From positions 96,001-160,000 of the forward strand of contig CAWJKZ010000009.1 of assembly GCA_963843575.1 (NCBI GenBank): a stretch of DNA of 64,000 nt, read 5' to 3'. Under the pieces are notes generated by a model. That model ran no database searches, was not told the DNA's origin, and was given only the letters and a program-made list of their open reading frames with translations. This stretch comes from an uncultured Acidobacteriota bacterium (lineage in GTDB: Bacteria > Acidobacteriota > UBA6911). Of this stretch, positions 11,517 to 50,948 are shown one piece after another; the first letter of the stretch is position 1; each line of letters starts with the position of its first letter. The position numbers were made by a program, and so were the translations under genes.

Positions 11517-12088
11517 ATGCCATCCCCGCACGAAGTCACTCATCTGCTCCAGGCCTGGTGCGGCGGCGACCAGGCGGCCCTGGATAAGCTCGTCCCTCTG
11601 GTTTATGACGAACTGCACAGGCTGGCCCACATCTACATGGTGCGCGAGCGGCCGGGCCACACGCTGCAGACCAGTGCCCTGGTCAATGAGGCCTATCTCC
11701 GGCTCATCGATGCCAACCAGGTTCAGTGGCAGGACCGCACCCACTTTTTTGCCATCTCGGCCAATGTGATGCGCCGCATCCTGGTGCAATTTGCGCGCTC
11801 GCGCGGTTCCCGGAAGCGGGGCGGCGGCGCCGGGCAAGTGGACCTCGACGAAGCGCTCATTCCGTCGCCGGAACGCGATGCCGACCTGATGGCGCTGGAC
11901 GACGCGCTGACTGCGCTGGCCGCGATCGATCCGCGGGAAGGGAGGGTGGTGGAGCTGCGTTTTTTCGGCGGAATGAGCGTGGACGAGACCGCGGAGGTCC
12001 TGCACTCTCGGGCATGATGGTGAAGCGGGATTGGAATCATGCGAAGGCGTGGTTGCTGCAGGAGTTGAAACGAGGGGCGCGCGGATGA
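11517..12088 (+). CDS. ECF sigma factor (kinase-associated, TIGR02999-like), frameshifted near 12005
   Basis: EVTHLLQAW..GDQAALDKLVPLVYDELHRLA, HTLQTSALVNEAYLRL, VVELRFFGG. The C-terminus VKRDWNHAKAWL is in another frame, and its TGA overlaps the kinase ATG (ATGA at 12085-12088). Confidence 0.88.
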
Positions 12089-13947
12089 GTATCGATCGGT
12101 GGCAGCGGGTCAAGGAGATCTACAACTCGGCCCTGGATCTCGAGCCGGGAGGGCGCGAGGCCTACCTGCGAGAGGCCTGCGGGGGAGACCAGTCCCTGCG
12201 GCAAGAGGTCGAGGCTCTGCTGGCCAACCTGCCGGAGGCCGAGGGATTCATGAAGGATCCCGCAATGGAAGTGGCGGCCCGAGGTCTGGCGAAAGACCAG
12301 GAAAACGCGCTGGCGGGAGAGCTGGCGGGCCGCACCGTTTCGCATTACCGCATCATCGAAAAGATCGGCCAGGGGGGCATGGGAGAGGTATTCCTTGCCG
12401 AGGACACCTCCCTGCATCGCAAAGTCGCGCTGAAATTCCTGCCGCCGGAAATGCAGCGGGATCCCGTCGCCCGAAAGCGCTTCCTGCGGGAAGCCCATTC
12501 GGCCGCTGCGCTGGACAATCCCTACATCTGCAGCATCCATGAAGCCGGCGCGTTCGAAGGCAAGGACTTCATTGTAATGGAGTACGTGGACGGTCAAACA
12601 CTGATGGACAAGCTCCGTCGCCATCTGCCGCTGAAGCAGGTCCTGCAGATCGCCACAGAGGTTGCGGAGGCGCTGGAGGCGGCGCACGGGAAGGGGATCA
12701 TCCACCGGGACCTGAAGCCCGCGAACATCATGCTGGCGCAGACAGGTCATGCCAAGGTGATGGACTTCGGGCTGGCCAAGCAGTTGATTCCGCCCGGAGG
12801 AATCGGCAGCCAGGAAGAGTCGGTGACGGCGCTGACCCGAAGCGGGATGACGCTGGGGACTTTGGCCTACATGTCGCCGGAACAGTTACGGGGGGCGACC
12901 GTCGACGCCCGGTCGGACATTTTCTCGTTTGGCGTCGTTCTCTACGAGATGCTGGCCGGTGTTCATCCCTTCAAGAAGGAGACGGGGATGGACACAGCTG
13001 GCGCGATCCTCAACTCGGCGCCTCAGCCTGTTGGAGAGCTTCGCGCGGATACTCCCGCTCTGATCCAGCACATTGTGAGGAAGATGCTCGCCAAAGATCC
13101 GCAGGATCGGTATTCATCGATGCACGATGTAAAGACCGACCTGAAGGAGTTGATGGAGGAGTCGAATCGGCCGGCACCGGGGTTACGTCGAGGGCTTAAA
13201 CCTATGTGCTGGATTGCCGCAAGCGCATTGGTAGTCGTCGGCGTGGGAATCTGGACGTTTTTCATGTTCGCTCCTCGCGAGATGGCATTACCGCCACCGA
13301 GAATCGTGCCTGTAACAACGTCCGGTGGCGCAAATGCTGACCCGTCACTTTCACCGGATGGAAACTGGATCGCGTTTGTCTGGATGGGTGAAAAGCAGGA
13401 CAACTTGGACATCTACGTCAAAGAGTTGAATGGTCCCGGCTTCAATCGATTGACGACCGACCCGGCAGATGACTGGTGCCCCGCATGGTCTCCCGATGGC
13501 CTCCAGATCGCTTTCCTGCGATCCTCGGGGGATCGATGGATCCTGTACCTCATCAGCCCGTTGGGCGGTGGAGAAAGGAAATTGGCTGAGGTAGGCGGCG
13601 GAAAACTCAGCTGGTCGCCAGACGGAAAGAACATCGCGTTTAACGACAGGAAATCGCCGAAAGATCCGCCGAGTATCTGGTTGCTGTCGGTGGAAACGCT
13701 GGAAAAGAAGCAGATGACCGCCCCAGATGTAAGTTACTACGGCGACCATGGGCCGGCCTTTTCACCCAACGGTCGCTACCTTGCATTCGTCAGGTATATT
13801 GAGAGTTCAAGATCCGCGCTTTATGTCATGGATCTTCCCCGTGGAGAGCCAAGGCTTGTGACGGACTATAACTCTCCTGCGGGGCCATGCTGGACTGCCG
13901 ACAGCCGCGAGATTGTCTTCGCCACTGATCCTGTAACAGGAGAAACG
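12085..13947 (+). pseudogene. Ser/Thr protein kinase with TolB/WD40-like (PD40) repeats, 5' part, interrupted by IS1111 element
   Basis: IGQGGMGEVF, VALK, HRDLKPAN, DFGLAK, GTLAYMSPEQ, a TM helix and SPDG repeats. The frame is restored (TGET|ALWRI) when the IS is removed. Confidence 0.92.
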
Positions 13948-13995
13948 CATTATGAAAGCCCGCCGCGTGATATCGGCATTTATACATTGAAGGCC

Positions 13996-14333
13996 GGCTG
14001 TCTGGCGACAGCCCAGGGGCTCTGCCCCTGGCCCCGGGATTTTGTGAGGCATGACTCTGGTGTCCGATAGATAAATGAGGCCTCTGACGATTGTTAGTCG
14101 CCAGAGGCCCGATGCACCATCGGCGCACCGTCGGCCTGACTATCCCTTGCCGGGTTGCGTCCCCGCAGAGCCCGACGCCGTTTCGTCAGGCGGGCCCAGT
14201 CTAGCACGTAGGAGATTGCAGTTTTGAAGATTTGGTCGCGAGCATAGAAGACATCATGAAAAGAAGACGCTCCAACAGCGGTAAGATTGGGATCGGTTCA
14301 AGACACCACTCAAAACCGCCAAAGGAGCGTCTG
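13996..14333 (+). other. Structured non-coding left end of the IS (multiple hairpins, RBS-occluding stem)
   Basis: Hairpins at 13996-14013, 14013-14031, 14079-14109 and 14134-14191. AGACGCTCC (14265-14273) pairs with GGAGCGTCT (14324-14332) over the transposase RBS. Confidence 0.6.
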
Positions 14334-15386
14334 ATGAAAAAGTATATCGGCATGGATGTCCACAAAGCAACAACGGTGATAGCGGTTATCGGTGAGTCGG
14401 GCAAAAGGATTACTGACGGCGTGGTGGAAACATCCCCAGAGGCAATCCTGGATTTCATCAACGGGCAGCGCGGGGCGCTGCATGTCACTCTGGAGGAGTG
14501 CGCACAGGCGGCCTGGCTTTATGACATGCTCCGACCTTACGTCGCAGACGTGTTGGTCTGCGATCCACGCAAGATCGCCAAGGCAAGTAACAAGGCAGAC
14601 AAGTCCGATGCTGCGCGGCTGGCGGAGTTGCTTCGCACGAATGCGCTGACGCGAGTCTACCATGGCGAACAGAGCACTCTGGGATTGAAGGAACTCGCGC
14701 AGGGGTACGCCTGTTTAATCGAGGACAGGACCAGGGTCAAAAATCGCCTGAAGGCTTTGTTCCGGGCCCGCGGGATACCTTGTGAAGGCGCCGGAGTCTA
14801 CGGTCTTGAGGAACGGGAGGAGTGGCTGGCGAAACTGGACTCGGCAGCCGTGCGTGTCCGAGCTGGACGACTCTGCAATCAACTTGACTGCGCCGACTGG
14901 CTGTCGATAGAAGCGGAGCAGGAACTGACAGCTGAGGCACGGAAACATCCCGCTACAAAGATACTTCGCAGCATACCTGGAATCGGGTATGTGCGCGCCG
15001 CTGTAATCATCGGCGTCGCTGGTACTCCGCACCGATTTCGAACCAAGAGACAGTTCTGGAGTTACTGCGGGCTGGGTGTACGAACCGAGGCCAGTTCGGA
15101 ATACAAGATGCTCGCCGGGAAGGTCGTTCGATCCAACAGGCGGCCGCTTGTCCGCGGCTTGAATCAAAACTACAGCCGGGCGCTGAAGTCTGTGTTCAAG
15201 AGCGCGGCCAGGACTGTTGCCTCAGGACCGTGGCGGTCATATTTCGAGGCCATGATCGAAAACGGCACCCCTGAATCACTGGCATACCTGACTTTGGCGA
15301 GGAAGATTGCGTCGGTCACGCTGGCACTCTGGAAAAGAGGAGAACGCTATAGCCAAAAGAAACTGAAGATACCGCACGCGGCATGA
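14334..15386 (+). CDS. IS110-family transposase (DEDD recombinase)
   Basis: MKKYIGMDVHK, LEE, KADKSDAARLAELLR, SIPGIG, F.....FWSYCGL, SS, LARK. AAAGGAG RBS before ATG 14334. Confidence 0.96.
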   Translation: MKKYIGMDVHKATTVIAVIGESGKRITDGVVETSPEAILDFINGQRGALHVTLEECAQAAWLYDMLRPYVADVLVCDPRKIAKASNKADKSDAARLAELLRTNALTRVYHGEQSTLGLKELAQGYACLIEDRTRVKNRLKALFRARGIPCEGAGVYGLEEREEWLAKLDSAAVRVRAGRLCNQLDCADWLSIEAEQELTAEARKHPATKILRSIPGIGYVRAAVIIGVAGTPHRFRTKRQFWSYCGLGVRTEASSEYKMLAGKVVRSNRRPLVRGLNQNYSRALKSVFKSAARTVASGPWRSYFEAMIENGTPESLAYLTLARKIASVTLALWKRGERYSQKKLKIPHAA

Positions 15387-15575
15387 AGCGTCTCGAGGAC
15401 CGACTGAGCAGGTCGGCAATGGTATTCAAATTGAAACCCGAACGAGACGCGAGGTCGAGGGTGAGTCTCAAGAACGCCGTTAGGCCCGGAGATGGAGTCT
15501 CCTTGAAACCATAGGCCCCCTCGCATGACCAAATAAAGCAATAGGCTTCCAAGTCTCAGATAGGACCATGGTCGG
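15387..15575 (+). ncRNA. Predicted bridge/seek RNA (target- and donor-binding loops)
   Basis: GAACGCCGT (15472-15480) and GAAAC (15505-15509) match the two strands of the target. ATAAAGC (15533-15539) and ATAGGAC (15560-15566) match the donor junction. Each pair sits in an internal loop. Confidence 0.8.
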
Positions 15576-15771
15576 CAACACGGCCGCTGTGCTTTGAAAG
15601 TCTCGAACGGATTTGAATTCCGCTGCCCCTTGAACAGCCGGCTTCGTATGCATAGTGCATGCGTTATTCCGGAAATGATCGCAGGATCAGCAGGGCAGCA
15701 CTGAACGAGCGTTGGCTGGATGTCGTGGACCGAAAAAACGCGCCCTGTTCCTGGGGCGGAAGAGTTTGTCC

Positions 15772-15777
15772 TTGACA
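15772..15777 (+). promoter_or_regulatory. -35 box of the circle-junction promoter
   Basis: TTGACA. On circularisation it is exactly 17 bp from CATTAT (13948-13953). Confidence 0.75.
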
Positions 15778-15791
15778 TCCGCTTTCATAGG

Positions 15792-16769
15792 ACGGCGTTG
15801 TGGCGGATCTTCGTGGACGGCGGAGAGCCTCGCAGAGTCCCGGCACGTGGCGAGCGGGTTCATCAGCCCACGGTCAGCCGGAATCGTCTGGCGTACCGAA
15901 GCCTAACCTATAACTCGGATATTTGGAGAATGGAGCTGACCGGGCAGGGGGCGATGAAACCGCCATCGAAGCCTTTATTCTCCTGGTCGTCAGGTGAGAT
16001 AGACCAGCGTATTTCGCCGGACGGAAGCAGGATTGCCTTCGCGTCCGACAGTTCAGGAAGCTTGGAGATCTGGGTTTGCCATGCCGACGGCACAAAGCCG
16101 ATGAAGCGCACCGAAATGAAAGCCGGAAGCACCGGCAGTCCAAACTGGTCTCCCGACGGCAAGAACATCGCTTTCGATTCCACCAAATCGGGGAATGGCG
16201 ATATTTATGTGGTCAGCGCGGAAGGAGGGCCGGTACGCCGCATCACAACTGATCCAACGGAAGAGGTGGTCCCCCGCTGGTCACGGGACGGTCGCTGGAT
16301 CTACTTCGGCTCGAACAGGAGCGGGACCTGGCAGATCTGGAAGATGCCGTCCGATGGAGGCAAGGCGATTCAGATCACCAAGGACGGAGGCATGGTGGCC
16401 CGCGAATCAGCCGATGGGCAGCTCGTGTACTACCATGGTTACTATAATCTTCAGAAAAAAGGTGTGTGGCGAGTGCCGGTATCGGACGGCCAGGAGACGC
16501 TCGTACTGGACAAAGAGATTGACCCCCATAATTGGGATTTGACAGACCGGGGCATCTACTTCATTGATGGCAGTGGCACCGTCAGCCTATGGCGACCATA
16601 TGCTTCTACGATTTTGCGACCCGGTCCATAAGGACTCTGACTCCTGTCCATGGTGCTCCAGGATTTGTGGGTAGATGAGGGTTTGAGCGTCTCGCCCGAC
16701 GGTAAGTGGCTTCTCTACTCCGGTGGGATCTTCACTTCCGACATCATGATGATCGACAACTTCCGCTGA
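15792..16769 (+). pseudogene. 3' part of the interrupted kinase/TolB-repeat gene (frameshifts near 16570-16680)
   Basis: ISPDGSRIAFASD, WSPDGKNIAFDS, WSRDGRWIYFGSNRSG, ending GLSVSPDGKWLLY...SDIMMIDNFR*. Confidence 0.88.
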
Positions 16770-23926: not shown

Positions 23927-24199
23927 GACTGCCACTGGCTGTCGCTCACCTTGCCCAGCGAGGGGTGATTGACGCGAACGCCGTCCTATGAAAGCGGATG
24001 TCAAGGACAAACTCTTCCGCCCCAGGAACAGGGCGCGTTTTTTCGGTCCACGACATCCAGCCAACGCTCATTCAGTGCTGCCCTGCTGATCCTGCGACAC
24101 TTCCGGAATAACGCATGCACTATGCATACGAAGCCGGCTGTTCAAGGGGCAGCGGAATTCAAATCCGTTCGAGACTTTCAAAGCACAGCGGCCGTGTTG

Positions 24200-24388
24200 C
24201 CGACCATGGTCCTATCTGAGACTTGGAAGCCTATTGCTTTATTTGGTCATGCGAGGGGGCCTATGGTTTCAAGGAGACTCCATCTCCGGGCCTAACGGCG
24301 TTCTTGAGACTCACCCTCGACCTCGCGTCTCGTTCGGGTTTCAATTTGAATACCATTGCCGACCTGCTCAGTCGGTCCTCGAGACGCT
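24200..24388 (-). ncRNA. Predicted bridge/seek RNA, copy 2
   Basis: Same guide segments as 15387..15575. Confidence 0.8.
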
Positions 24389-25441
24389 TCATGCCGCGTG
24401 CGGTATCTTCAGTTTCTTTTGGCTATAGCGTTCTCCTCTTTTCCAGAGTGCCAGCGTGACCGACGCAATCTTCCTCGCCAAAGTCAGGTATGCCAGTGAT
24501 TCAGGGGTGCCGTTTTCGATCATGGCCTCGAAATATGACCGCCACGGTCCTGAGGCAACAGTCCTGGCCGCGCTCTTGAACACAGACTTCAGCGCCCGGC
24601 TGTAGTTTTGATTCAAGCCGCGGACAAGCGGCCGCCTGTTGGATCGAACGACCTTCCCGGCGAGCATCTTGTATTCCGAACTGGCCTCGGTTCGTACACC
24701 CAGCCCGCAGTAACTCCAGAACTGTCTCTTGGTTCGAAATCGGTGCGGAGTACCAGCGACGCCGATGATTACAGCGGCGCGCACATACCCGATTCCAGGT
24801 ATGCTGCGAAGTATCTTTGTAGCGGGATGTTTCCGTGCCTCAGCTGTCAGTTCCTGCTCCGCTTCTATCGACAGCCAGTCGGCGCAGTCAAGTTGATTGC
24901 AGAGTCGTCCAGCTCGGACACGCACGGCTGCCGAGTCCAGTTTCGCCAGCCACTCCTCCCGTTCCTCAAGACCGTAGACTCCGGCGCCTTCACAAGGTAT
25001 CCCGCGGGCCCGGAACAAAGCCTTCAGGCGATTTTTGACCCTGGTCCTGTCCTCGATTAAACAGGCGTACCCCTGCGCGAGTTCCTTCAATCCCAGAGTG
25101 CTCTGTTCGCCATGGTAGACTCGCGTCAGCGCATTCGTGCGAAGCAACTCCGCCAGCCGCGCAGCATCGGACTTGTCTGCCTTGTTACTTGCCTTGGCGA
25201 TCTTGCGTGGATCGCAGACCAACACGTCTGCGACGTAAGGTCGGAGCATGTCATAAAGCCAGGCCGCCTGTGCGCACTCCTCCAGAGTGACATGCAGCGC
25301 CCCGCGCTGCCCGTTGATGAAATCCAGGATTGCCTCTGGGGATGTTTCCACCACGCCGTCAGTAATCCTTTTGCCCGACTCACCGATAACCGCTATCACC
25401 GTTGTTGCTTTGTGGACATCCATGCCGATATACTTTTTCAT
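24389..25441 (-). CDS. IS110-family transposase
   Basis: Protein identical to 14334..15386. Confidence 0.96.
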   Translation of the reverse strand: MKKYIGMDVHKATTVIAVIGESGKRITDGVVETSPEAILDFINGQRGALHVTLEECAQAAWLYDMLRPYVADVLVCDPRKIAKASNKADKSDAARLAELLRTNALTRVYHGEQSTLGLKELAQGYACLIEDRTRVKNRLKALFRARGIPCEGAGVYGLEEREEWLAKLDSAAVRVRAGRLCNQLDCADWLSIEAEQELTAEARKHPATKILRSIPGIGYVRAAVIIGVAGTPHRFRTKRQFWSYCGLGVRTEASSEYKMLAGKVVRSNRRPLVRGLNQNYSRALKSVFKSAARTVASGPWRSYFEAMIENGTPESLAYLTLARKIASVTLALWKRGERYSQKKLKIPHAA

Positions 25442-25922
25442 CAGACGCTCCTTTGGCGGTTTTGAGTGGTGTCTTGAACCGATCCCAATCTTACCGCTGT
25501 TGGAGCGTCTTCTTTTCATGATGTCTTCTATGCTCGCGACCAAATCTTCAAAACTGCAATCTCCTACGTGCTAGACTGGGCCCGCCTGACGAAACGGCGT
25601 CGGGCTCTGCGGGGACGCAACCCGGCAAGGGATAGTCAGGCCGACGGTGCGCCGATGGTGCATCGGGCCTCTGGCGACTAACAATCGTCAGAGGCCTCAT
25701 TTATCTATCGGACACCAGAGTCATGCCTCACAAAATCCCGGGGCCAGGGGCAGAGCCCCTGGGCTGTCGCCAGACAGCCGGCCTTCAATGTATAAATGCC
25801 GATATCACGCGGCGGGCTTTCATAATGCGTTTCGGAGTCTCTTGTCATGAATTAAGCTGTAAGTAGTTGTTCCCGCTGAGGTAAAATGACATTATCAAGA
25901 GTGGTTCGAGGCGGAGATACAC

Positions 25923-43360: not shown

Positions 43361-44999
43361 TTAGTTTTCTGACCTGAGAGTGAGGACCCAATCATTGGGG
43401 TCGGGCATGCTGAAGGATTGGGATGCGCCGCCTTTGACGGTGCCGAGCGTGGTTTCCCGGCCCGTTCGCGGATCGAACCTGAGGACGTGGTAGCTGCCGG
43501 AAGGAAGGTTGAGGGCAAAGGATCCGCCCTTTGCGGCGTAGACGACGTACTGACGGCCCGGTTCCGCCAGCACGTAGGTTCGCTCCCCCGAGGTCAACAG
43601 TTCGTTGTGACTGGACATGGTCCAGTACCGGATTTCCTTCGCCGTGAAGAAGTCGACCATTCGCTTGATGTCCCCGTATTCCTCCGGAGCGTCGTACCAG
43701 TCCCCGGTGATCTCCACGTGGCCCATGCCGTCCGGGGTGATCCTCATGTCCCCGGCGCTGCCGTATCCACCGGCCGTCGCGATGCCCCATATGGCCCCCC
43801 GCAACTTCGTCCGGTTCATATCGACCCGGATTCGGAGCGGCGGGTTGTGCTGGCCGAAATAGCCGTACTCGTCGTTGACGACGGGCATGTTGTGGCCGAG
43901 GTTGGAGACGATGCCGGCGTTCCCCCACGCGTCGCCTTCGTCGTACTTCGGGTTCCAGCCGCCGTACTGGAGGCAGGCATAGCTGGGCCAGTTCGACTGA
44001 AAGAACGCGAAACCGGCGCGGATCGGTCCTTCGCCCTGTCCCGGGTGAATCGACAGGGCGCGCAGAGATCCGCCCTCCGCCGCCCACGGATCCGTCTGTC
44101 GCACGATGGCGCCCATGCGCTCGAAATCGGATTTCGCCTGCGGATGCGTTCCCTTGTACCGTCGGCGAGAGATCCCACTCATTGCACATGCACCAGATCA
44201 CGTTGGAATAGGCGGCGTACCGGGCGACCACGTAACGCACGAACCGGTCGTTCTGGTCGGGAAGACCGAACATCCTATTGGCCGCGTAGGGATTCGCGAT
44301 AATCAGGTCCGCTACCATCCCGCTGGAGTCCATGTATTGCACCATTTCGTCCAGCTTCCGCCAGTACGGCAGATTCAGGCGGTCGCGGTCGGGGTTCTGA
44401 GCGTCGCCCAGGTACGGCTGGGCGTCGCGGTAGTTGTTGAACTCGACGTTGCACGTGTAGGAATTCTGCGCGTAGACGTGCATTCGAATCTTGTTCATCC
44501 CGTACTTGAGCGAGTTCGCGACCGAAGTCTTCCAGTTGTCGTTGGCGAGCGCAGCCTGGATCCAGTCGTAATAGGTTTGCCCCCACATGAAGTACCGCGT
44601 CCCATCGTCCCAGACGAAGCTGTAAGGATGCTCCCTGTCGATGCGGAGGAACCCGTGCTTCCCGGCCTTCGGCGCGACGCAGGTAAGTTTCCCGGTTTTG
44701 CCGTTCAGGCCCGGGTCGGCGGAACTGGTCTGGTACGACCAGTTCCCTTCGACTGTGGGCGTGAAGCGGAGCTTGAAGGCGTTGTCGCCGTCCCAGAATC
44801 CGGTCAATGTTCTGGTGACACCTCCCGGCCCGGCGAAACTGGCGCTGACGGTTGCCGCAGGATCCGTGTAGGGATTCGGATATGTCCGTTCGGCCTTGAG
44901 CGTGATTTCGTAGGTTGACCATCGGGCCACCGACTGAGCCATCGCCGGGGAAGGGACAATTGCAGGAAACAGCAGCAAGGCGAGCGCGGGCATGCACAT
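43361..44999 (-). CDS. DUF5060-DUF4038-DUF5605-like secreted hydrolase #4 (frameshift near 44170)
   Basis: RWSTYEITL..YPNPY, GFWDG..FKLRFTP, HGFLR, YVVARYAAYSNVIWCMCNEW, then PVVNDEYGY, LAEPGRQYVVY, FDPRTG, DWVL in another frame. Confidence 0.82.
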
Positions 45000-49334: not shown

Positions 49335-50948
49335 GTGAGAAAGCTCCTTGTCCTGCCGTTGCTGTCGTGCCTGCCTCGTTCCGTGTGCTTACGCTCAGAT
49401 CCAGGTGCCGCGGTGGTCCGTCCATGAGATCACCCTGGCGGCCTCGGGAACATATGCGAATCCGTACACTGAAGCCGGCGTGACTGCCATCTTCCGCGGA
49501 CCCGGTGGTATCGCCCGCACGGTGTCCGGATTCTGGGATGGCGGGGCAACTTTCAAAATCCGTTTTGCTCCGACCGTGCAGGGCAAGTGGTTCTGGTCGA
49601 CGGCTTCCCGCTGACCCCGGCCTCGACAAGCGTTCAGGCGAAATTACATGCACGGCGCCACGGCCCGGCCGACACGGATTTCTGCGGCGCGACCAGGCCC
49701 ACCCCTACAGCTTCGTGTGGGACGACGGCACACGTTACTTCATGTGGGGGCAGACCTACTACGACGTTATGCTGAACCTTCTGGCCGGCGGCGGCTGGAA
49801 GGCGGGGGTGGACAATACCGCGGCACACGGCATGAACAAGATCCGTCTCCATGTTTTCGCCCAGAAGGATTACAAAACCGGTGTCGAGGACATGACCTAC
49901 CCGCAGGCGGTCCCGTACGGCGGCACCTTCTCCAGTCTCGATCGCGATCGCCTGAATATCGCGTACTGGCAAGGACTGGACGAGTACGTCCGGTACGTGG
50001 ACTCCAGGGGACTGATCGCCGACCTCATCCCATTCAATCCTTACGGCGACAATGTCATGTGGGGCACCCAGGAACAGGACGAACGCTATCTCCGCTATAT
50101 CCTCGCCCGGTACGCGGCGTTTCCACACGTGATCTGGTGCGTCTGCAACGAGTGGAACTACTCCACGAGGCCCCAGTCCTACTTCGACCGCATGGGAGAG
50201 ATCATACGGAACGAAGACCCCTGGATTAAAGAAGGACCCAACCTCCGCGCGCTGTCGATCCACCAGGGAACCCGCATCGAGTTCAATTTCTTCCGCTCCG
50301 CGTGGCCGGTGCACTCGATTGTTCAGTACGGGGTCCGGAACAACGTGCAGAACACGCGTCCCGAGACCGACGAAAGAGCCGAAGACGCGATACTACAACG
50401 GCGACGAGTGGGGGAACGCGAGCATCGTCGTAAACCTCGGGCACGACATGCCCGTCGTGAACGACGAATACGGTTACCTTGGCGAGAAGACTCCGATCGA
50501 ACTGACCCAAGTACAACATCGACATGCCATGTGGGGCATTGCGGCGGCGGGTGGGTACGGATCTGTGGGCGACTTCCGCCGGCCGCCCACGGGGAATCCT
50601 GAGATCACCGGCGACTGGCTGGATGCGCCCGAATACGACGACATCCAGCGCATTGTGAGGTTCTTCGATACGAAAGGGCTCGAGTACTGGAAGATGGCCA
50701 GCCACAACGAACTGAAAACCGCGGGCGAACGCATCTATGTGCTCGCGGAACCCGCACGGCAATACCTGTTCTATGCGGCAGTGGGCGGCCCCTTCGCCGT
50801 CAATCTCGCGCCAGGGACATATTCCGTCCGCCGCTACAACCCGCGCACGGGCGAGGACGTTTCGTTGCCGGATCAGCCCGGCGGCGGCCCGGTCTCGTTC
50901 ACCGTCCCCGACACCAACGACTGGGTGATCTACCTCAAGCGGAAATAA
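49335..50948 (+). CDS. DUF5060-DUF4038-DUF5605-like secreted hydrolase #5 (frameshifted)
   Basis: Close paralog of 43361..44999 (YSFVWDDGTRYFMWGQTYYD, VIWCVCNEW, PVVNDEYGY), split over several frames. Confidence 0.82.

Follow-up and report, generated by a model that had tools for sequence, protein, structure and literature searches.

A widespread structured module in the left end of an IS1111-type insertion sequence, possibly a portable small-RNA gene

Introduction

RNA-OUT of IS10 and art200 of IS200 are short, stable, structured RNAs that are transcribed against the transposase leader; both overlap the start codon, and each is specific to one element family. For the IS110-family insertion sequence (IS) ISPpu9 of Pseudomonas putida KT2440, the cited sections of two reports (PMC8450116; PMC12288879) describe an antisense small RNA (sRNA), Asr9, that lies upstream of tnp, the gene for the transposase, and was shown experimentally to promote translation of a structured leader, together with a second sRNA, Ssr9, housed in a module (MITEPpu9) that resembles miniature inverted-repeat transposable elements (MITEs) and occurs downstream of tnp and elsewhere. 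Here we analyzed an IS1111-type element of the IS110 family in a 64,000-nt stretch of an uncultured Acidobacteriota bacterium (contig CAWJKZ010000009.1, positions 96,001–160,000), hereafter the window. Judged by comparison with its relatives, the left end of this element is a captured copy of a widespread, undescribed structured module common to unrelated transposons of soil bacteria.

Results

An acquired module in the left end

The element occurs in six copies in its own genome (c1 to c6; three identical, two at 85% identity and c6 at 71–76%), of which copies 1 and 2 lie in the window. On comparative evidence, positions 13996–14200 of copy 1 are the core of a conserved, structured module of ~190 nt within the left end (Table 1). 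In the own genome a profile of this module matched the six IS copies and nothing else, and among 80 transposase-homologue loci it matched one (L008), whereas the right end was recognizable in 51 of the 80, and the nearest relatives lacking the module (L009, L030 and L037; ~47–50% identity) shared the terminus GCATTATGAAAG and had a left end of ~80 nt. Because the profile matches were so restricted, the right end so widespread and the left end of the nearest relatives so short, the comparison indicates that the module was acquired in the left end by one sub-lineage of IS1111-type element. Left ends of other relatives measured ~110–170 nt, ~270 nt in one family and ~400 nt, without the module, in a Sorangium family.

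The exact core 21-mer was found in 86 metagenome contigs (83 with module flanks and 3 chance matches). Contexts were counted from tblastn and Pfam, and of the jackhmmer matches only those clear of the module were used. Ten contigs carried the module upstream of transposases 58–84% identical to this one, on the transposase strand. A further 28 carried it ~350 nt past the stop (~1373–1416 nt from the start) of a 25–29%-identical IS110-family transposase, where it followed that element's own target- and donor-type loops and preceded the right terminus CTTCTTATAGGTG by ~230 nt; in 2 contigs it lay 135 nt upstream of a 27%-identical IS110-family transposase. The module was also found behind an ISL3 DDE transposase (L100, L150; sequence shared by L091, L115, L162) and behind tandem DUF1670 open reading frames (ORFs) (L157; sequence shared by L109, L167, L152), in both cases inside an element whose end is set by diverging flanks, while in L089, L161 and G068 (L178) it abutted an AAA_25 gene on the opposite strand.

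Of the 80 copies scanned, 10 (the ISL3-type copies with L152 and L153) had their cassette closed by a 25–33 bp inverted copy of the 5′ segment; in ISL3 and DUF1670 contexts this inverted copy stood 115–122 nt after the core. The closing repeat was perfect in L105 and absent in IS110-family carriers, this element included. No target-site duplication was seen at the ends of the closing repeats where both repeats exist, and the module does not show the combination of terminal inverted repeats and target-site duplication that defines a MITE.

Several carriers showed features of their own. In the DUF1670 element (L157, L109, L167, L152) the module lies ~170 nt after the second ORF, and the element ends ~330 nt beyond the module at ...GGTGACACTATTCAC(A/T)ATGTCCCCCTC, after which the flanks differ. 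Five contigs (L123, L136, L151, L155, L170) have a module that ends right after the 21-mer and is followed by one shared foreign sequence (GCACGAATCGG...), which hints at site-specific insertion or deletion there. The distant IS110 clade (L133, L163, L093 and 25 others) is arranged as target loop, donor loop, module and a terminus with TTGACT, the same order of parts as in this element when read through the circle junction. The B-type donor loop GATAGGTG matches the terminus TTATAGGTG, and in L119 a B-type right terminus is directly followed by a repeat of the element's own transposase 3′ end and right-end start, perhaps the result of a tandem or partial duplication.

Across 401 genomes of the phylum, a DNA search that scored two candidates per genome gave module matches in at least 3, the own genome included. 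Rfam 15 returned 0 matches at E up to 1 for 13800–15950 and for L133, L157, L100 and L137; BLAST with the module gave no match in PLSDB plasmids or INPHARED phages, and the exact 21-mer had 0 matches in IMG/VR. No paper printing the core 16-mers (both strands, both alphabets) was found, 12-mers appeared only in unrelated primers, and the papers searched gave no description of a left-end module in IS1111-type elements.

Covariation supports the fold

We then scored a 65-sequence alignment against four specified parts: the upstream local hairpin, helix P1, the variable hairpin and a three-tiered 3′ domain. RNAalifold on the raw MAFFT alignment recovered the 3′ domain only. With the other helices specified by hand from the window copy, so that the pairing percentage leans towards that copy, 87.9% of cells were paired across 45 pairs (79.7% in shuffles; 34–44% in slid controls). 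Both sides had changed in 26 pairs, with 262 compensated cells compared with 101 in shuffles, and 0 of 500 shuffles reached the observed values.

In the 3′ domain, nine pairs carried compensatory changes, and the closing pair of the apical hairpin was GC in 32, AU in 24 and UA in 8 sequences. The GCCTGAC/GTCAGGC stem that an earlier reading of this sequence (the original prediction) had drawn was confirmed at 14134–14140/14185–14191. Because the apical hairpin switches between compensated forms (TGCG/CGCA, TGCA/TGCA and TGCT/AGCA; the arm covaries with its partner), we regard TGCGTCC as structural. Helix P1 is invariant in the 65-sequence set, since its core was the search key; compensatory changes in P1 appeared in two copies that were found without the 21-mer key (G068: L175, L178). 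A small peptide gene was considered for the 5′ segment and rejected: its ATG is not conserved, reading ATA or ATC in many copies.

The long ends and left-end hairpins of the original prediction were likewise present (13996–14013, 14014–14030 and 14078–14110). It had also proposed a 9-bp long-range helix competing with local stems. The complementary 9-mers exist at 14017–14025 and 14165–14173, but their pairing found no support: 59.2% of cells were paired, there were 0 compensatory pairs, and 500 of 500 shuffles did equally well. The local hairpin that holds 14017–14025 has a covarying base and uncompensated loop variants, and B-type copies lack the 5′ arm of the long-range helix yet retain GCAGAG.

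The target-like 10-mer does not follow the target

The original prediction centered on a 10-mer in the left end, ACGCCGTTTC, read as a copy of the element's own target that serves as a decoy or regulatory RNA, or as an internal recombination site whose inversion would act as an off-switch. The match itself is real: the 10-mer is the reverse complement of GAAAC-GGCGT (hyphens separate the left and right target halves), and 11 nt match at the copy-2 site. Within the window it occurs only in the two IS copies (0.19 occurrences expected). When the left end was simulated with a first-order Markov model and compared on both strands with the 22-nt empty site, we obtained P(at least 10) = 0.009 and P(at least 11) = 0.002, so that the match is unlikely by chance, though less so than the proposed figure of under 1 in 1000. 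The neighboring TGCGTCC, taken for a donor match, is present, but as a donor match it is not significant (P(at least 7) = 0.51 by that simulation).

We compared the 10-mer with the guides in relatives whose targets differ. The target and donor guides of the element are predicted to lie in a right-end bridge/seek RNA. The genomic copies have three target types, (G)GAAAC-GGCGTT(C/G) in copies 1–3, GATAC or AATAC-GGCGTTC in c4/c5 and CTTAC-CGCTTAC in c6, for which the first guide reads GAACGCCGT in c1–c5 and GTAAGCGGT in c6, and the second TTGAAAC in c1–3, GATAC in c4/c5 and CTTAC in c6. L008, from another metagenome-assembled genome (MAG; 89% protein identity), has the target GAAAC-GGCGTTG and right-end guides as in copy 1, and L102 has both the target and the guides of copy 1. 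Among the metagenome relatives whose ends or guides were readable, L126/134/143 have the target CTTCAC-CACGATT (guides AATCGTGGT and CTTCAC), L142 has ATCAAC-AACTTAT (TAAGTTAT and ATCAAC), L159 has TTTAC-ACCGGAA (TTCCGGTGT and TTTTAC), L106/146 have the right target half TGGTGAC (guide AGTCACCAGT), and L103 has a further, different guide. In total, eight target specificities are represented among the elements that bear the module, namely the six genomic copies, L008 and ten elements from metagenomes. Across these specificities, two segments of the right end vary in step with the left and the right half of the target, as right-end guides of the IS1111 group do. A second TTGAAAC at 15431–15437, upstream of the guide loops, is not a guide, because it stays constant in c4/c5 while their target differs.

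The left-end motif behaves otherwise. In the genomic copies it reads GACGCCGTTTCGTC (c1–3), GACTCCGTTTCGCC (c4), GACTCGGTTTCGCC (c5) and GGCTCCGTTTCACC (c6), or in summary GAC(G/T)C(C/G)GTTTC or GGCTCCGTTTC. L008 reads ACTCCGTTTC and L102 ACTCCGTTTT, both with ACTCC despite the target of copy 1, and the other metagenome specificities (L126/134/143, L142, L159, L106/146, L103) have ACTC(C/T)GTTTC throughout. The commonest 10-mers in the alignment (n = 65 sequences) were the consensus ACTCCGTTTC (25) and ACTCCGCTTC (21); the exact 10-mer of copy 1 was found in 2, and position 14177 was G in those 2 of 65 and T in 63. The consensus matches the target over 7 nt exactly, which the T-to-G change at 14177 extends to 10–11 nt. 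Going by distribution rather than a rooted tree, G14177 is probably derived, a change that arose within the lineage of copies 1–3.

The motif stays constant while the guides track eight targets, and the target-copy reading is therefore refuted by the very comparison that the original prediction had put forward. The 10-mer motif and TGCGTCC also occur in ISL3- and DUF1670-linked module copies, which have no such target or donor; the 10-mer thus neither co-varies with target or donor nor is confined to IS110-family elements, as a guide loop would be. On this comparison the 10-mer is part of the conserved internal loop of the module, and its likeness to the target is a coincidence. Also rejected was the idea of a split bridge RNA whose donor- or target-binding loop is supplied by the module, the loops of the module being invariant across donors and targets. 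No inverted left end was found among the copies read (six genomic copies and L008). With no copy of its own target in the left end, the proposed decoy, internal recombination site and inversion switch fall; what stands of the original prediction is a left end that is unusual, added, conserved, structured and probably acting at the RNA level.

Promoter- and terminator-like sites on the minus strand

Read on the minus strand, 48 of 62 non-redundant copies had TAnnnT to the right of the 3′ domain, upstream of the outer stem by 5–9 nt (3.0 in shuffles), and TTG stood 16–19 nt further upstream, across unrelated spacers, in 33 of 62 (0.26 in shuffles; 0 of 62 in the opposite orientation). Most A-type copies, this one included, have TGn before the -10 instead of TTG. 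At the other end of the module, a terminator scan called a minus-strand hairpin and T-run in the window (from 14110 to 14078) and likewise in L100 and L133, and at least 4 T followed within the next 8 nt after the hairpin in 53 of 68 copies. The fold z-score was -7.3 on the minus strand and -5.0 on the plus strand. Non-Watson-Crick cells of the 3′ domain fitted the minus strand, where a plus-strand A-C becomes G-U, in 42 cases compared with 10. The promoter and terminator expected of an antisense-sRNA gene are thus represented by sequence signals, and these are weak in this copy.

From these promoter-like and terminator-like sites we infer a minus-strand RNA of ~125 nt, and the case that the module is a small-RNA gene of this kind stands at about even odds. 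In this proposal, a promoter at ~14198–14206 would drive the RNA from near 14191, and transcription would end near 14068, at the 14110–14078 hairpin and its T-run. The product would be antisense to transposase transcripts that start upstream, whether from the junction promoter or by host read-through, and could modulate, in one direction or the other, the fate of the transposase transcript, much as Asr9 acts in ISPpu9.

Anatomy of the element and its copies

Apart from its left end, the element is an ordinary IS1111-type member. Copies 1 and 2 are identical, 1847 bp long and oppositely oriented within the window (Table 1). Excision of copy 1 in silico restored one uninterrupted 917-aa Ser/Thr-kinase/PD40 ORF; the gene it breaks encodes a Ser/Thr protein kinase with a PD40 beta-propeller (12031–13946 and 15794 onwards). 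The core AC is common to target and element (13945-6 / 15792-3) and is shared by the six genomic copies and the metagenome relatives (one reads AT), consistent with insertion without target duplication. The product of the transposase gene has the DEDD (RuvC-like) N-terminal and Transposase_20 C-terminal domains of the IS1111 group, and its nearest relatives among public genomes are in Acidobacteriota MAGs. The 9-bp sub-terminal inverted repeats fall within the 7–17 bp given for the IS1111 group in the cited part of its description (PMC11208160). The non-coding ends measure 387 nt on the left (13947–14333) and 407 nt on the right (15387–15793), the left being longer than the short left ends of that group. 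Across the circle junction, TTGACA and CATTAT (13948–13953) would form a putative TTGACA-17-CATTAT promoter; junction promoters of this kind are described for the IS110 family in the section cited (PMC12288879).

Table 1. Positions of the features discussed, in window coordinates.
Feature	Position	Strand	Remarks
IS110-family (IS1111-type) element, copy 1	13947-15793	+	Bounds set by where it is identical to copy 2 and to the other four genomic copies
Left sub-terminal inverted repeat TATGAAAGC	13951-13959	+	Partner GCTTTCATA at 15781-15789; 9 bp
Two hairpins, then GGGATTTTGT	13996-14045	+	Terminator-like on the plus strand; base of second hairpin covaries
5′ arm of proposed long-range helix	14017-14025	+	3′ arm 14165-14173; unsupported; loop and 3′ side of a local hairpin
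Module 5′ segment GAGGCATGACTCTGGTGTCCGATAG	14046-14070		Pairs with the core (helix P1)
Predicted ~125-nt small RNA	14068-14191	-	Putative; antisense to transposase leader; approximate ends
Variable G+C-rich hairpin, then minus-strand CATTTATCTA	14078-14110	-	Terminator-like; 10 of 12 pairs changed on both sides
Core 21-mer GCACCATCGGCGCACCGTCGG	14114-14134		Identical in c1-c5 and L008; one change in c6
3′ domain	14134-14191		Outer stem 14134-14140/14185-14191, internal loop, inner stem 14149-14154/14171-14176, apical hairpin 14156-14159/14164-14167
TGCGTCC	14156-14162	+	5′ arm and loop of apical hairpin; in 28 of 65 copies
10-mer ACGCCGTTTC	14175-14184	+	3′ end of inner stem and 3′ side of conserved internal loop
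Extended -10-like box TGcTAGACT (TGCTAGACT)	14198-14206	-	7 nt upstream of outer stem
Transposase/recombinase gene	14334-15386	+	Pfam DEDD_Tnp_IS110 (PF01548) 1.3e-16, Transposase_20 (PF02371) 1.1e-11
Right-end guide GAACGCCGT	15472-15480	+	Reverse complement of core and right target half (AC GGCGTTC)
Right-end guide TTGAAAC	15503-15509	+	Same sense as left target half and core
ATAGGAC, candidate donor guide	15560-15566	+	Second AGTCTC-flanked loop; identical to the element's right terminus
TTGACA	15772-15777	+	-35-like part of the putative junction promoter
Copy 2 of the element, inverted	23983-25828	-	Same left-end module; 10-mer at 25591-25600

An in-frame ATG at 14256 would add 26 basic residues (MKRRRSNSGK...; 14256–14333) to the transposase; its frame is retained, with an in-frame 6-nt indel, in the 71%-identical copy, and it could encode an N-terminal extension or a leader peptide. 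A different insertion sequence, ~1.3 kb long, with a CTAG (or TAG) duplication and the inverted ends CAGGATGCTGAAA/TTTCAGCATCCTG, splits that copy, c6 (outside the window, at G000 C10:639414-642559, locus L006/L007), within the target-binding part of its right end. Elsewhere in the window itself, a 125-nt inverted repeat (44565–44689 / 49641–49765) has 74% complementarity, with arms 4951 nt apart.

Discussion

Together, our results favor an explanation in three parts, in which the module was acquired, its likeness to the target arose by chance, and it functions as a minus-strand small-RNA gene; we give this explanation as a whole a probability of roughly 0.55. Several observations weigh against it. 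This element lacks a TTG -35 and has only TGn with TAGACT, its T-run fills 4 of 8 positions in copy 1 and 2 of 8 positions in c4, and our promoter rules assumed a sigma-70-like pattern for the host phylum. The strand signal from wobble pairs is a weak one: with one doubtful pair set aside, ~15 independent events speak for the minus strand as against 7 for the plus strand, so that both strands have wobbles in their favor. The conserved 5′ segment, which pairs in P1, lies beyond the proposed minus-strand terminator, and its conservation is therefore not explained by a terminated sRNA and points to a longer RNA, a plus-strand RNA or a DNA-level role. Moreover, a purely cis-acting antisense RNA would not need such conservation across carriers, which argues for a partner in trans or for a plus-strand role as well. 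The invariance of the 21-mer among metagenome copies follows from the exact-match search, and the shuffle controls overstate significance because of that sampling and the many related copies.

A broader proposal, which we hold only tentatively, is that the module represents an undescribed family of portable promoter-to-terminator small-RNA cassettes whose loops and core act in trans on a conserved partner, and not simply as an antisense RNA in cis. That partner could be either a factor of the host or some step that the expression of different transposons has in common. The cassette, at times bracketed by inverted repeats, would move between IS110/IS1111-type, ISL3, DUF1670 and AAA_25-linked elements of soil bacteria.

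The alternative that holds up best, though it is unlikely, places all function on the plus strand: the module would be a cis-acting leader here and a 3′ untranslated region elsewhere, controlling how the transcript of the transposase or of the bridge RNA is terminated, stabilized or translated, with no separate antisense RNA. The module is co-oriented with the neighboring transposase in 40 of 40 transposase-linked contigs, and the covariation in P1 requires that the 5′ segment and the core be part of a single molecule; L178 has one G-T pair in P1 that fits the plus strand only. A hairpin with GGGATTTT precedes the module on the plus strand, and the plus-strand fold has z = -5.0. The upstream ATG stands ~15 nt from the module in c6, L106, L126 and L142, and any mRNA carrying that ATG, if used, would therefore cross the module. 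A plus-strand leader nevertheless leaves unexplained why only the -10- and -35-like positions are conserved on the minus strand, between variable spacers, and why a T-run follows the hairpin on that strand; the adjoining AAA_25 gene in L089, L161 and L178 also lies on the minus strand. A leader could, besides, coexist with an antisense RNA, as in ISPpu9.

Two further accounts appear improbable, and to a similar degree. In the first, the module is a DNA-level element with no RNA function, either a miniature transposon bounded by terminal inverted repeats or a single-strand fold that serves as a recombination or origin site. Such a reading would suit its presence in many kinds of mobile DNA and the inverted 5′-segment copies (25–33 bp) that bracket 10 of 80 cassettes. 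It fits poorly with repeat ends that show no target-site duplication, with IS110-family carriers, this one among them, that do without the right repeat, and with an own genome in which only the six IS copies carry the module; covarying internal stems and conserved internal loops also exceed what transposon ends need. The second account sees in the module a mere passenger, selfish or decaying, that plays no part for this IS. Relatives without it are multi-copy and so apparently active, and the promoter and T-run signals are weakest in this lineage; against this account, large blocks of the module are identical between copies of 71–85% overall identity, and it is retained in 10 of 10 metagenome relatives (58–84% protein identity).

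Least credible, to the point of being very improbable, is the original prediction narrowed to copies 1–3, where the T-to-G change would have made a functional target mimic (an RNA decoy for the right-end guide, or an internal pseudo-target permitting inversion or self-insertion): the 10–11-nt match is improbable by chance (P = 0.002–0.009), the minus strand CGAAAC-GGCGT agrees with the left guide throughout and with the right half at 5 of 7 positions, and the target of copy 1 likewise has one mismatch in its right half, but 9 of the 10 bases are a family consensus unrelated to targets, same-target relatives lack the G, the three G-bearing copies are identical and intact with no inverted variant, and RNA pairing with the guide would span only 7 bp.

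With the target-copy reading refuted, a tempting but mistaken notion falls away, namely that an RNA-guided insertion sequence carries its own target in duplicate to serve as decoy or off-switch; comparison of relatives with different targets offers a way to test claims of this type. The eight specificities are a clean natural demonstration that the right-end guides of this IS1111-type clade are reprogrammed together with the target. If the module is a small-RNA gene, it would extend the ISPpu9 precedent to a portable, cross-family regulatory-RNA cassette. For the engineering of bridge recombinases, natural elements may then carry additional RNA-level control; for catalogues of bacterial non-coding RNAs, the module is absent from Rfam.

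How, then, does the module compare with RNAs already described? The RNA predicted here differs from RNA-OUT and art200 in lying ~140 nt upstream of the start codon and in being portable. With the IS1111-group elements that carry bridge/seek RNAs, as far as the cited part of their description goes (PMC11208160), this element shares the DEDD recombinase, the sub-terminal inverted repeats and the target and donor loops in the right end; it departs from their short left ends through its 387-nt left end, a product of the added module, and the loops of the module, unlike the guides of that group, are not programmable. The resemblance to ISPpu9, as that element appears in the sections cited above, is one of arrangement: both are IS110-family elements with a small-RNA gene, here predicted, antisense to the transposase leader just upstream of tnp, and in both a related module occurs downstream of tnp and also hitchhikes apart from the transposase. 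Expression and function were shown for ISPpu9 and are here inferred. ISPpu9 belongs to the IS110 group, and Asr9 overlaps its bridge-RNA region in the left end, whereas the predicted guide RNA of the present element is at the right end; the ISPpu9 modules are mobilized by the end boxes of ISPpu9 itself within one species group, whereas the module described here is shared by IS110, ISL3 and DUF1670 elements across many soil metagenomes. By this analogy the module appears closest in kind to the small-RNA modules of ISPpu9, from which it differs in being common to transposon families that are unrelated.

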